Positions 16,809 through 21,215 of a stretch of DNA of 64,000 nucleotides are shown here, one piece after another. Numbering within the stretch: the stretch's first letter is position 1; each line of letters opens with the position of its first letter. The DNA lies in contig JBAQNJ010000001.1 in assembly GCA_049303675.1 (NCBI GenBank), positions 344,711 to 408,710 on the forward strand, in the 5' to 3' direction. Below the pieces are notes generated by a model. That model was not told where the DNA came from. It worked only from the letters and a program-made list of their open reading frames with translations, and ran no database searches. Made by a program: the position numbers and the translations under genes. This stretch comes from Microgenomates group bacterium (GTDB taxonomy: Bacteria > Patescibacteriota > Microgenomatia > UBA12405).

Positions 16809-17927
16809 TCAAGGCCATGCCTGCCGGCAGGCAGGGGAGAAGCCGCGAAGCGGAGAGGGGTTTATCGCCCAGAGTATCATCCCCGCTGCCCAGGCAAAGG
16901 GGTGTTCGGCAGTATACAGTTTTCTTTTTACCGATTTTCCATTTCTTTCATAGCACTCATAAATTATTTTGTCATCTACAATTTTTTGACTTATATTTTG
17001 AATTATTTTTAGAGCTTCTTTATTTTTACCTACTCTGCTTAGGGCCACTATATAGGCAGTAATTGTCTGCCACCACAATATCCCTTTATTTTGGTAATCA
17101 GGGATTCCTACTATTCTTTGCAGGATATCCACTCGCCACCACGGATACTTTGGACTATTTGTCTCCATCGAAAAATTAGCCAGCGTCTTCTGGCACTCGG
17201 CCAAAATACTCTTACTTTCCTCACCAGTCGTTAGTCCCCAAATTATAGCCAGACAATTTCCAAAAGGATACAAATAATCTTCTCTCTTATAGTCGTGCCA
17301 GTCAGCCAAATATTTCCCATTCCATAGTTTCTCTCTTATATTTTTAGCTATGTCTTTTTCTTTGGACTTGTTTAAATCCTTATATATTTTCCAATAAATT
17401 ATATTGGTGTAGAGTAGGTGTCCCCACTTCCACACCGCATCATTCCATTCGGCCATTGGCCCATCCCATAGTAGTCCATTCTTTTCTTTAGACGACAAAT
17501 ATTTTAGGGATTTATCGATATTTTTCTTATATTTATCTTTATCAACATGTATCGCCAGCAGGGTTATTAGTGTCGTTCCATCTAGCACCTCCTGACCCAG
17601 CCCTCTCAACTTATATGTTGGTCGCGGTGTTTTATAAAACTTTGGTTTACCAAAATATTTACCCATATTTAGTGGCCCGTTCATTATCCGGTAGGGGACC
17701 ATGCCATCCTCCCGTTGGAACGAGAAAAATAGATCCACCATTTTTATGACTATTTCCCTATCCCCGATTTCCAGCGACCCGAGGGCCGCGAAAAATCCAT
17801 CTCTGGCCCAATAATCAGTAAAGTGATGTCCGCCCGCCACAACACCCTCACTCCGATAGCAATCCCTCAAATTTTTCTTGGCTATTTCTCTGGCCTCTGC
17901 CACCATATCCATTCTAAAGTCTAACAT
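16809..17927 (-). CDS. glycoside-hydrolase-like (six-hairpin / GDE_C-like) protein
   Basis: 372 aa; HFTDYWARDGFFAALGSLEIGD motif reminiscent of amylo-alpha-1,6-glucosidase / GH63-like domains. Confidence 0.4.
   Translation of the reverse strand: MLDFRMDMVAEAREIAKKNLRDCYRSEGVVAGGHHFTDYWARDGFFAALGSLEIGDREIVIKMVDLFFSFQREDGMVPYRIMNGPLNMGKYFGKPKFYKTPRPTYKLRGLGQEVLDGTTLITLLAIHVDKDKYKKNIDKSLKYLSSKEKNGLLWDGPMAEWNDAVWKWGHLLYTNIIYWKIYKDLNKSKEKDIAKNIREKLWNGKYLADWHDYKREDYLYPFGNCLAIIWGLTTGEESKSILAECQKTLANFSMETNSPKYPWWRVDILQRIVGIPDYQNKGILWWQTITAYIVALSRVGKNKEALKIIQNISQKIVDDKIIYECYERNGKSVKRKLYTAEHPFAWAAGMILWAINPSPLRGFSPACRQAWP
16810..16865. repeat. GC-rich hairpin element copy C (larger relative: caagg-GCCTGCCGGCAGGC-aggggagaa-GCCGCGAAGCGG-agaggggttta)
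   Basis: G-rich arms caagg / gaggggttt resemble copies A and B; two GC hairpins; supplies the C-terminal residues of the minus-strand ORF 16809-17927. Confidence 0.45.
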
Positions 17928-18571
17928 TTATATTCATCTTTTCCCCAGTTTTCTACGTTATTCATAATATATTTTTTCGTTGCCAAATAATGTTTTTTGT
18001 CTTTAATAATTTCATCATAATATCCTGTTTGCCATCCAAATAATATTTTATTTTGGTTGGCATATCTCGATACCGCCGATTTGTACTGTTGAATAATTTT
18101 TGGAATCATCTGTTTTGACTTCACACTTAAATATCCCATGCTTTTGTTTTGTAGAGACGCCATATATGGCGTCTCTACTGAATTATCAACACGCGTCTCT
18201 ACTGAATTAAAAACCTTCGTCTCTACTGAATCTCTAGTACACATGTTCAGTGAATCATCAGTATTCGCCACTATTGAACACGCATTAGTTACCTCGATCA
18301 ACATATGTATATGGTTTGGCATGACAGCAAATGCACAAATTATTATATTTGGAAAATGTTTTGGAATTTCAATCAAATATTGTTTTGCTATTTCTCCTAT
18401 TTTTGAAAACACCATCTTATTATTTTCAATTTTTCCCAGCGATCTATCATGTTTCCATGTACAAATTGTTATATGGTAATAACCGTTACTGGAATAGTCC
18501 CACGATTCCAACCTTGCCGATCTTATTTTATATCTCTCATCAAATGTGTCCAAATGATCATCATCGATCAT
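17921..18571 (-). CDS. REP-associated tyrosine transposase (RAYT / IS200-family TnpA, HuH-Y1), with an in-frame REP insertion
   Basis: HuH motif MPNHIHMLIEV and catalytic Tyr region FGWQTGYYDEIIKD...YIMNN. About 50 residues between them (DSVETKVFNSVETRVDNSVET...) are the translation of the palindrome/direct-repeat cluster at 18148-18235. Confidence 0.7.
   Translation of the reverse strand: MIDDDHLDTFDERYKIRSARLESWDYSSNGYYHITICTWKHDRSLGKIENNKMVFSKIGEIAKQYLIEIPKHFPNIIICAFAVMPNHIHMLIEVTNACSIVANTDDSLNMCTRDSVETKVFNSVETRVDNSVETPYMASLQNKSMGYLSVKSKQMIPKIIQQYKSAVSRYANQNKILFGWQTGYYDEIIKDKKHYLATKKYIMNNVENWGKDEYKC
18148..18235. repeat. REP-like cluster 1: palindrome GTAGAGACGCCATATATGGCGTCTCTAC plus three CGTCTCTACTGAAT direct repeats
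   Basis: Palindrome at 18151-18178; repeats at about 18170, 18193 and 18218; inside the RAYT ORF. Confidence 0.75.
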
Positions 18572-18600
18572 GTATTTATCTTATTCCTTTTTTGTAGAGA

Positions 18601-18682
18601 CGCGCCATGGCACGTCTCTACTGAATATCAAACGTCTCTACTGAATATCAAAACCAACGTCTCTATAGATTCACCAATTTTC
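18601..18682. repeat. REP-like cluster 2: palindrome GTAGAGACGCGCCATGGCACGTCTCTAC plus 20-nt direct repeats (CGTCTCTACTGAATATCAAA x2, third copy degenerate)
   Basis: Palindrome at 18604-18631; about 30 nt upstream of the RAYT start. Confidence 0.75.
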
Positions 18683-19406: not shown

Positions 19407-21215
19407 ATGGATTCCCAAGTCGCCGATATCAAGAAAAAATTGGATATCGTCGATGTCATCGGTAAATATCTACCTCTCAAAAAACGTGGCCGCCACTGGC
19501 TGGCCAATTGTCCCTTTCACGGTGAAAAAACTCCCTCTTTTACCGTCTCTGCCGAATTACAAATGTTCAAATGTTTTGGCTGTGGCAAGTCGGGGGATTT
19601 GTTCACCTTTGTCCAAGAGTTTGACCATATCGATTTTCGTGAAGCCCTCGAAGAAATGGCCAAGTTGGCTGGAGTCGAGTTAAAAAAAGATCCCCATATT
19701 ACCGCCGTCGAGAAGCTTCATCGCCGGCTTGTCGATCTAAATCAAGAAGCTTCCAAGTTTTATCACTATATGCTGACTACTCATCCACTCGGTCAGTCTG
19801 CCCTCGAATATTTGAGTGGTCGCCATATCACTCTCGACACCATTCGCCTTTTTCGTCTTGGTTTTTCACCCCAAAATCCGGAACTGGTTATCAACTATTT
19901 ACTCAAAAAGGGTTTTACCAAATCCGAATTAATTAGCAGTGGTTCTTATGGCACATCCCGTTATGGCAATAATTTATATGACCGGTTTACTGGCCGCTTA
20001 GTTTTTCCCTTGGCCGATTTTCGAGATCGGATACTCGGCTTCTCCGGTCGAATAATACCCTCACAGTCCGGTTTACCTGCCGATAGGCAGGCCAAATATA
20101 TTAATTCGCCCGAAACCGACATTTATCACAAGAGTCAGCTACTTTTTGGCCTCAATCTGAGTAAGGATAGTATTAAGAAAAATCAGAGTGTCATCATCGT
20201 CGAGGGCGAGTTTGACATGATCTCTCCCTTTACTCATGGAGTCCAAAATATTGTGGCTATCAAGGGGACTGCCTTTACTGTCGATCAATTAACCCTCTTG
20301 CACCGCTATACCGATACTCTTATTCTTGGCCTCGACTCCGATTTTGCGGGTACAGCTGCCGCTCTCAAAAGCATCGAATTAGCCGATTCTATGGGCTTTG
20401 ATATTCATGTTATTGATCTCTTGGGTCGCTACAAGGACCCCGACGAAGCCATTACCGCCGATGTCGATTTTTACAAGCAGCAGGTCGCCCATCCCATTCC
20501 CATCTGGGACTTTATTATCAATTCGGCGCTATCAAAATTTGATTATTCCACTCCTAGGGGCAAACAAGATATTTTGCGTTTGGTATTACCTTTTATTACC
20601 AAAATCAACAATTTAGTGACTCGCTCTGATTATCTTTCCAAGTTATCCTCCGCCATTGGTTCGTCTCCTGATGCTGTTATTGCCGAATCCCAAAAATACA
20701 CCAATAAACTTTCACCCCAAACTTCAAACTTAAAACCTCAAACTTCAAACTTTGCAGTTCCAGTCGCCAAAATTGACTTATTAGAATCCCATTTATTATC
20801 TCTTATTTTCTCCGCCAAAAAACCCTATCTTCTCGCCGCTAGGATCAAGGAAAAATTAGAATTCGTCACCCCTCGTTTTGTCAAGATTTTTTCAGCCCTT
20901 CTAAGACCTCGCAAAATCTTTAATCCAGTCCGTTTTGGCAGTCGTCTGCCGCCCGAACTATTATCAATTTATCAGGATATTTTTCTCAACTCCACCCGTT
21001 TCAAATTTGAGTCAAAGGATAGGTTGGTTGAGATCAACAAGACCATTAATCAAATTCTCACCCTCACACTCAAAGACAAGTTATCTGTCATTAGCTCCAA
21101 AATCGCTCAGGCCGAATCTGCCGATGACGACGAATTAGTGGCCACATTGGAAGCAGATTACAATTCCCTCCTCCACCAACTCTCGTCTATTCAGTCCACA
21201 AAAAGTAGAAATTAG
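19407..21215 (+). CDS. dnaG: DNA primase
   Basis: N-terminal zinc ribbon CPFHGEKTPSF...CFGCG, TOPRIM region EGEFD...DSD; 602 aa; upstream of rpoD. Confidence 0.85.
   Translation: MDSQVADIKKKLDIVDVIGKYLPLKKRGRHWLANCPFHGEKTPSFTVSAELQMFKCFGCGKSGDLFTFVQEFDHIDFREALEEMAKLAGVELKKDPHITAVEKLHRRLVDLNQEASKFYHYMLTTHPLGQSALEYLSGRHITLDTIRLFRLGFSPQNPELVINYLLKKGFTKSELISSGSYGTSRYGNNLYDRFTGRLVFPLADFRDRILGFSGRIIPSQSGLPADRQAKYINSPETDIYHKSQLLFGLNLSKDSIKKNQSVIIVEGEFDMISPFTHGVQNIVAIKGTAFTVDQLTLLHRYTDTLILGLDSDFAGTAAALKSIELADSMGFDIHVIDLLGRYKDPDEAITADVDFYKQQVAHPIPIWDFIINSALSKFDYSTPRGKQDILRLVLPFITKINNLVTRSDYLSKLSSAIGSSPDAVIAESQKYTNKLSPQTSNLKPQTSNFAVPVAKIDLLESHLLSLIFSAKKPYLLAARIKEKLEFVTPRFVKIFSALLRPRKIFNPVRFGSRLPPELLSIYQDIFLNSTRFKFESKDRLVEINKTINQILTLTLKDKLSVISSKIAQAESADDDELVATLEADYNSLLHQLSSIQSTKSRN

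Follow-up and report, generated by a model that had tools for sequence, protein, structure and literature searches.

We analyzed a 64-kb stretch of the genome of a Microgenomates bacterium, a member of the candidate phyla radiation (CPR) (the window; all positions are 1-based within it), and found in it a gene for a REP-associated tyrosine transposase (RAYT) that carries a repetitive extragenic palindrome (REP)-like hairpin in frame within its coding sequence and has a second such hairpin just upstream of its start codon. In our assessment, the probability is about 85% that this locus is a REPtron of the type known as RAYT group 4 or TnpA_Y1 subclass 2.4. Comparison with related loci and proteins (designated by L and P numbers, respectively) indicates that the intragenic hairpin is ancestral to the clade, that its DNA sequence has been kept constant, and that it evolves in concert with the flanking copies.

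The enzyme

The gene (17921 to 18571, minus strand) encodes a 216-aa TnpA_REP-like HuH/Y1 protein, an assignment based on the list of open reading frames (ORFs), Pfam, a profile match to Escherichia coli TnpA_REP (Protein Data Bank [PDB] 4ER8), an AlphaFold2 (AF2) model, and Foldseek. An earlier note made from this sequence (the original prediction) had recognized both the HuH and YIMNN hallmarks in this minus-strand ORF, and both are indeed present, as MPNHIHMLIEV (residues 84 to 94) followed by FGWQTGYYDEII...YIMNN. In an alignment of the window protein with its relatives (A1), H87 and H89 of the HuH motif NHIH (residues 86 to 89; 18305 to 18316, minus strand) are invariant, and the motif fits the NH[IFV]H pattern of subclass 2.4. 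Equally invariant is the Y motif YIMNN (17957 to 17971, minus strand), in which Y201 is the predicted catalytic tyrosine and N205 a predicted metal ligand; the motif has the Asn that, as third metal ligand in the Y---NP signature, separates class 2 RAYTs from the Y---Q of IS200. The alignment also contains the WQ motif (W180 and Q181; 18029 to 18034, minus strand). The protein ends 15 residues past Y201 and so has no conserved C-terminal extension. A single-sequence phmmer search against PDB recovered nothing relevant; the A1 profile, built from 22 relatives, matched 4ER8 (E = 8e-6), with W180/Q181 aligned to W94/Q95, Y201 to the catalytic Y115, and N205 to N119. In the E. coli enzyme, W94 and Q95 contact GTAG (PMC6006769).

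The Pfam model PF01797 (Y1_Tnp) scores 32.7 bits against a cutoff of 23, and its match to the native protein is limited to the N-terminal half (profile positions 3 to 65). Deletion of residues 95 to 141 in silico yields one continuous match (3 to 121 of 121), so the extra segment sits exactly between the two halves of the core. This segment (18149 to 18289, minus strand) lies between the HuH strand and the next helix, shows as a gap in A1 against the shortest relatives, and is predicted to be disordered. The best-scoring family is NCBIfam NF047646 (REP_Tyr_transpos), with 43.9 bits for the native protein and 53.2 bits without the insert, when the match likewise becomes continuous (7 to 130 of 146). 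In the AF2 model, the core has predicted local distance difference test (pLDDT) values of >90, which fall to <50 for about residues 101 to 152. A Foldseek search of PDB gave 29 matches with E ≤ 1e-3, all of them IS200/IS605 TnpA proteins or the RAYT 4ER8, with 4ER8 giving the best query TM-score. The Pfam score above threshold, the profile match, and the Foldseek matches bear out the RAYT-type enzyme of the original prediction, and the AF2 model, together with the restored Pfam match, agrees with its placement of the insert in the loop between HuH and Tyr. Taken together, sequence conservation and the model indicate that the product is a HuH/Y1 single-strand DNA endonuclease of the RAYT type with a catalytic apparatus that looks intact (H87, H89, Y201, N205, and W180/Q181).

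The intragenic palindrome and its tandem arm copies

The intragenic element (18151 to 18178), recovered by an inverted-repeat scan and by folding, is the 28-bp palindrome GTAGAGACGCCATATATGGCGTCTCTAC, which is read as VETPYMASL(Q). Its two 14-nt halves are 100% complementary, as had been predicted. It starts with GTAG and ends with CTAC, which makes it a "double-foot" REP, and when folded it gives a stem of 12 bp and a loop of 4 nt. Its position, in frame, is between HuH and Y, within the loop that connects the HuH strand (β3) to αC.

The palindrome is joined by the direct repeats that the original prediction had counted as three: the 13-mer TTCAGTAGAGACG occurs exactly at 18170 to 18182, 18194 to 18206, and 18218 to 18230, with a period of 24 nt. 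On the coding strand, it consists of the left arm of the palindrome plus four 5' bases. Together with the preceding A, it forms a 14-nt unit core, ATTCAGTAGAGACG, and two degenerate units (starts at 18255 and 18279, minus strand) that match this core at 9/14 and 10/14 positions continue in the same 24-nt register. The whole is a tandem array of five 24-nt (8-codon) units, three exact and two degenerate, each made up of ATTCA, GTAGAGACG, and a spacer (18160 to 18279, minus strand; Tandem Repeats Finder [TRF] period 24, 2.6 copies; register 14/14, 14/14, 14/14, 9/14, and 10/14). It accounts for 40 codons, and the palindrome's own left arm serves as the last unit. Across the window, GTAGAGACG occurs eight times against 0.15 expected, a count that none of 100 shuffles reached; seven of the eight copies are within the intragenic and upstream clusters, and the eighth (10028) is outside any hairpin.

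A decaying pseudogene or an assembly artifact, with the array as a misassembly or as the disruption of a dead transposase gene, could be suspected, given that tandem repeats are prone to collapse and expansion in short-read metagenome-assembled genomes and that the protein scores below the NCBIfam cutoff (see below). We regard this as very improbable. The ORF is uninterrupted and keeps all its catalytic residues, the period of the array is exactly 8 codons, the core is modeled with high confidence, and on the minus strand the gene is closely packed between conserved neighbors. The identical protein is recorded on two contigs, including NCBI JBAQFH010000001.1 (998 kb). An intact ORF, combined with an identical protein on record, makes a frameshift artifact unlikely.

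The upstream cluster

The cluster that had been predicted upstream of the gene is real, although its coordinates were slightly off: inverted- and direct-repeat scans and folding place the intergenic double-foot REP, which has one mismatched pair, at 18594 to 18621, so that it ends 22 nt, rather than about 30 nt, before the RAYT ATG. Like the intragenic palindrome, it starts with GTAG and ends with CTAC. Both palindromes fall within the distance of about 1 kb from the gene that is looked for in RAYT-associated hairpins with a 5' GT[AG]G foot. The description of the two as near-identical holds for the outer 9-bp arms, which are equal, but not for the central 10 nt, which differ (CCATATATGG versus TGCCATGGCG). 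The upstream palindrome would translate as VETCHGASLQ, which is the intragenic motif of the relative P0002 (54% identity). It is accompanied by arm repeats (18607 to 18670, minus strand) comprising two exact 20-nt units (TRF period 20, 100% match), which come before it on the coding strand, and one degenerate copy; the exact arm copies are at 18613 to 18625 and 18633 to 18645. The degenerate copy (18658 to 18670) starts at the very first base after the stop codon of a peptidase S51 gene (18671 to 18673). In the arm repeats, every GTAG has a CA before it.

Two elements of the original prediction do not describe this arrangement. First, the gene is not flanked on both sides: we found no hairpin copy 3' of it, the flanking copy being on the 5' side only, and the stop codon overlaps or abuts the next gene. 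Second, bacterial interspersed mosaic elements (BIMEs) are made up of regularly spaced whole REPs in alternating orientation. Each cluster at this locus combines a single palindrome with direct repeats of only one of its arms, without alternating orientation, and we therefore rejected the BIME label.

Age and conservation of the intragenic hairpin

The original prediction interpreted the segment as an insertion into this particular gene; on that reading, a mobile REP- or BIME-like element recently entered the gene in frame, and orthologs should lack it. The reading accords with the absence of the segment from the distant relatives P0018, P0022, and P0024, with the continuous hidden Markov model match restored by its deletion, and with the published description of such elements, which itself speaks of "insertions" (PMC6006769). 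Yet in A1, the palindrome's literal translation, VETPYMASLQ, directly follows the HuH strand as a conserved motif in proteins that are only 40 to 55% identical, and the palindrome-encoded motif is at the same position in all of the close relatives P0003 to P0013. Its variants VETCHGASLQ, VETPDLASLQ, VETRYIASLH, and VETIHELSLQ would each still allow for a palindrome. Among four CPR relatives whose DNA was examined, L201, L203, and L205 have the identical 28-mer (28/28) at this position, in proteins only 40 to 48% identical to that of the window, and one of these loci also shares the position next to the primase gene dnaG. In L201 and L205, moreover, the upstream copies have decayed and the intragenic copy is perfect, making the intragenic copy the best conserved of the hairpins. 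What varies between lineages is only the arm copies: amplification of the left arm in tandem, in units of 24 nt (8 codons), is the lineage-specific part of the locus. The segment is thus partly a normal component of the family, with a palindrome conserved in the clade and arm copies that are not. On these grounds, a recent insertion is largely refuted for the palindrome itself, and we consider it quite unlikely as an account of the locus.

Conservation of the peptide raises the alternative that the SVET repeats and ETPYMASLQ were selected as protein sequence, e.g., as a linker or a modification site, and that the palindrome is incidental. We give this explanation hardly any credence. The same sequence is found in the noncoding DNA upstream; the amino acid variants VETRYIASLH and VETCHGASLQ preserve the palindrome; the region is predicted to be disordered; and other relatives read the hairpin in a different frame, as xRD...VST. 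Further, where degenerate residues are identical between relatives, the same codon is used in 103/103 cases inside the hairpin compared to 813/1313 (62%) elsewhere in the gene; these pairwise comparisons are not independent of one another, yet the difference is plain.

The copies within a locus also tend to change together. The intragenic hairpin is the same as the flanking hairpin in 9/18 related loci, compared to 6/306 mismatched pairs of loci, a correspondence that fits the earlier description of the element as "cognate" to its gene. L210 (2973 to 3696) is a complete REPtron with three identical 28-mers, one abutting the start codon, one in frame inside the gene, and one supplying the stop codon (the TAG of GTAG), and all three have the same compensatory C/G swap in the palindrome center relative to the palindrome of the window.

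Distribution of the hairpin

A wider sample of 80 metagenome loci served to address distribution. Among the metagenomic relatives, 75 were complete (27 to 41% identity), and 47 of these had a GT[AG]G...C[TC]AC hairpin between HuH and WQ. Hairpins elsewhere in the ORF were seen in these complete relatives only in L181, which has two upstream of HuH. The intragenic hairpins are read in frame 0 in 37 cases and in frame 1 in 12; frame 2 would read TAG. L208 (1285 to 1548), L129, L156, and L161 have two intragenic copies, the first with the GTAG foot only and the second with the CTAC foot only, which bracket a variable AT-rich in-frame spacer of about 200 nt in L208. These paired single-foot copies look like a REPIN-like dimer within a coding sequence.

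The matches listed include more than 120 stretches of genome, from Cyanobacteria, Bacteroidota, Chloroflexi, and other phyla, that have the same stem with variable palindromic centers, and in all but about five of 128 such hairpins, the surrounding reading frame lacked RAYT motifs. Its presence in many phyla, mostly outside RAYT-like frames, identifies the stem as a widespread REP type and further argues against selection for the peptide. Tandem copies of one half-palindrome lie beside 10 of the 128 dispersed hairpins in this set, in unrelated bacteria, suggesting that arm arrays are a recurrent property of the element and pointing to a duplication process linked to the hairpin. Half-palindrome arrays of 3 to >6 units of 15 to 18 nt are seen in L059 (at about 900), L076 (about 1487), and L105 (about 7627). 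A logo of the 5' flank of the dispersed hairpins showed a weak T at -1 and no clear target motif.

A role in RNA

The hairpins might also act as regulatory structures in mRNA: the upstream stem as a 3' stabilizer or translation damper for the peptidase S51 message or as a 5' untranslated region element, and the internal stem in controlling translation or decay of the RAYT message. Folded as RNA, the two regions give strong structures (-38 kcal/mol, z = -6.7, and -30.6 kcal/mol, z = -3.6), the upstream cluster follows immediately on the S51 stop codon, the only mismatch of the upstream hairpin is a G-U pair on the sense strand, and an action on mRNA has been reported for REPs in general (PMC3733652). 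On the other side, there is no terminator-like T run after either hairpin on either strand; a simple role as an intrinsic terminator was dropped when a terminator scan found none. In the relatives, sense-strand G-T and A-C mismatches number 12 and 25 in intragenic hairpins and 18 and 17 in flanking ones. This lack of a G-T excess argues against selection on the transcript alone, and the presence of both feet on a perfect palindrome suggests that it is recognized on either strand of the DNA. Although an RNA-level role could coexist with that of a REPtron, we judge it an improbable explanation of the locus, if somewhat less so than the other alternatives considered above.

Relationship to known systems

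The closest published counterpart is TnpA_Y1 subclass 2.4 of Quentin, Siguier, Chandler, and Fichant (2018; BMC Genomics 19:475; PMC6006769), which corresponds to RAYT group 4 of Bertels et al. (2017). Its members are described there as having the motifs NH[IFV]H, WQ, and YIxNNP, a variable β3-αC insertion with short DNA repeats, and double-foot REPs (5' GT[AG]G...C[TC]AC 3'). These REPs occur beside tnpA and also in frame inside it, between HuH and Y, which the authors call a striking trait, unique to the subclass; the hosts are Cyanobacteria, Bacteroidetes, and "various phyla" (PMC6006769). The window protein agrees in its NHIH, GWQ, and YIMNNV motifs, in the lack of a C-terminal extension, and in the variable β3-αC insertion, and its locus agrees in the double-foot REPs, the short DNA repeats, and the presence of one REP in frame between HuH and Y and another beside the gene. 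It differs from the subclass as published in its CPR host, in the V instead of P at the end of the Y motif, in having the REP at the locus only in the DNA examined, and in its arm-only tandem arrays with an 8-codon period. Where the published account speaks of insertions, our data suggest a conserved, coevolving intragenic copy rather than a sporadic one.

With the E. coli REPtron (4ER8; RAYT group 2, subclass 2.2), the locus shares the HuH/Y1 fold, the aligned Tyr/Asn and W/Q residues, and a GTAG-footed hairpin, the substrate of the E. coli enzyme, adjoining the gene. However, the E. coli protein has a C-terminal extension and no β3-αC insertion, and the similarity, detected with the profile only, is weak. 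E. coli REPs are also unlike those of the window in being imperfect, bulged, single footed, strictly extragenic, and present in hundreds of copies as BIMEs. The TnpA proteins of IS200/IS605 elements (IS608 and ISDra2) have the same fold and chemistry and recognize subterminal hairpins on single-stranded DNA with a guide tetranucleotide 5' of the hairpin. Those elements, though, are true insertion sequences that occur in multiple copies, differ at their left and right ends, and have a Y...Q motif; the window locus instead has Y...N, a hairpin within the coding sequence, and a single-copy gene that adjoins dnaG in two Microgenomates genomes, those of the window and of L201. Rickettsia palindromic elements (RPEs) and the intragenic GTAG/CGTC REPs (Di Nocera et al. 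2013, PMC3733652) are comparable as in-frame palindromic repeats tolerated in surface loops. In contrast, RPEs are longer, occur in a wide range of unrelated genes, and have no tie to the gene for the enzyme that mobilizes them; in the window, the repeat sits in the cognate RAYT gene, at a position that does not vary across the subfamily.

Several observations weigh against the assignment to RAYT group 4. The protein misses the 80-bit equivalog cutoff of REP_Tyr_transpos both in its native form and with the insert removed. The residue after YIMNN is V in the window protein only and P in most relatives, so that YIMNNV matches YIxNNP at 5/6 positions. Beyond the two hairpins at the locus, the 64-kb window holds no further hairpin copy, nor do the flanks of the CPR relatives, and "REP associated" can be said only of the locus itself, since no dispersed REP population is visible in either. 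The perfect conservation of the DNA could in part follow from a double constraint, on peptide and palindrome, without any active process. Finally, we found no biochemistry in the literature for this protein or for any group 4 RAYT.

Gene neighborhood

The RAYT stop codon overlaps an ATG of the downstream GDE_C-like ORF (at 17921 to 17927); the NCBI annotation begins the GDE_C-like gene 9 nt later. The tight packing described above suggests that the RAYT gene is cotranscribed with its housekeeping neighbors. On the other side, dnaG (19407 to 21215, plus strand) adjoins the RAYT gene, as it does in L201 (Shapirobacteria, 48% identity), where it occupies positions 964 to 2772 of that locus. In L203, the RAYT gene directly follows a gene for an MgsA/RarA-type AAA protein, and similarity of the upstream sequence makes the same arrangement probable for L208. 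The dnaG and MgsA/RarA-type neighbors are conserved positions of the RAYT gene beside replication-linked genes.

Other hairpins were also noted. A 16-nt GC-rich perfect palindrome, TGCCTGCCGGCAGGCA (16818 to 16833), forms the final codons (...PACRQAWP*) of the GDE_C-like ORF and is single copy in the window, and L201 has another, different GC-rich hairpin between dnaG and the RAYT gene. A relaxed hairpin scan also returned a foot-like hairpin, GTGGTCCCGCAGCTGCGGGACCGG (2028 to 2051), with a GTGG start and two mismatches, the sequence of which is unrelated to the GAGACG type.

A possible mechanism and its implications

Because the element begins (5') with GTAG and ends (3') with CTAC, the same GTAG-footed hairpin can form from either strand. 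By analogy with studied RAYTs, the enzyme would bind the hairpin and its GTAG foot on single-stranded DNA and then cut a nearby CT or CA dinucleotide and rejoin the ends. In a group 3 RAYT, cleavage occurs at CT and CA sites chosen by the GTAG guide (Corneloup et al. 2021, PMC8266576), and by the same analogy, the CA before each GTAG in the arm repeats is a candidate cleavage site, offered as a lead only. Either such cleavage and rejoining or gene conversion among the copies might keep them alike. The loop may tolerate the encoded peptide because, in the model, it is disordered and away from the active site. The roughly 40 extra codons would have arisen by tandem amplification of the 24-nt unit, i.e., the left arm plus its 5' flank, through slippage at the hairpin or enzyme-mediated rejoining, and may have persisted because 24 is a multiple of three and the element contains no stop codon in frames 0 and 1.

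A more speculative proposal, which we put forward tentatively and consider doubtful, although less so than any of the alternatives to the REPtron assignment, is that, in these very small CPR genomes, the RAYT makes up with its hairpins a self-contained module that is passed on vertically and lacks dispersed REPs, in which the intragenic copy is the enzyme's real cis-acting substrate. As part of such a module, the intragenic copy could serve in autoregulation, or it could be a master copy that is protected because its loss would disrupt the gene.

The combination of intragenic and flanking REPs in RAYT group 4 was already published in 2018 (PMC6006769), and the present locus is a new example of it in an unusual host. 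That paper makes no mention of CPR hosts, and we found no paper linking RAYTs with Patescibacteria. No new class of system is involved, and the additions are modest: evidence for an ancestral and constrained intragenic REP and an apparent lack of dispersed copies in the DNA examined. What the comparisons contribute is evidence that the intragenic hairpin is fixed in position, constrained at the DNA level, and concerted with the flanking copies, which allows the published "insertions" to be restated more sharply, as the testable proposition that function is maintained. With its recognition hairpin retained in the coding sequence, this subfamily would offer a natural handle on the role of RAYTs in their hosts, and the self-contained module, if true, would imply a host-level role for group 4 RAYTs that is independent of spreading REPs.

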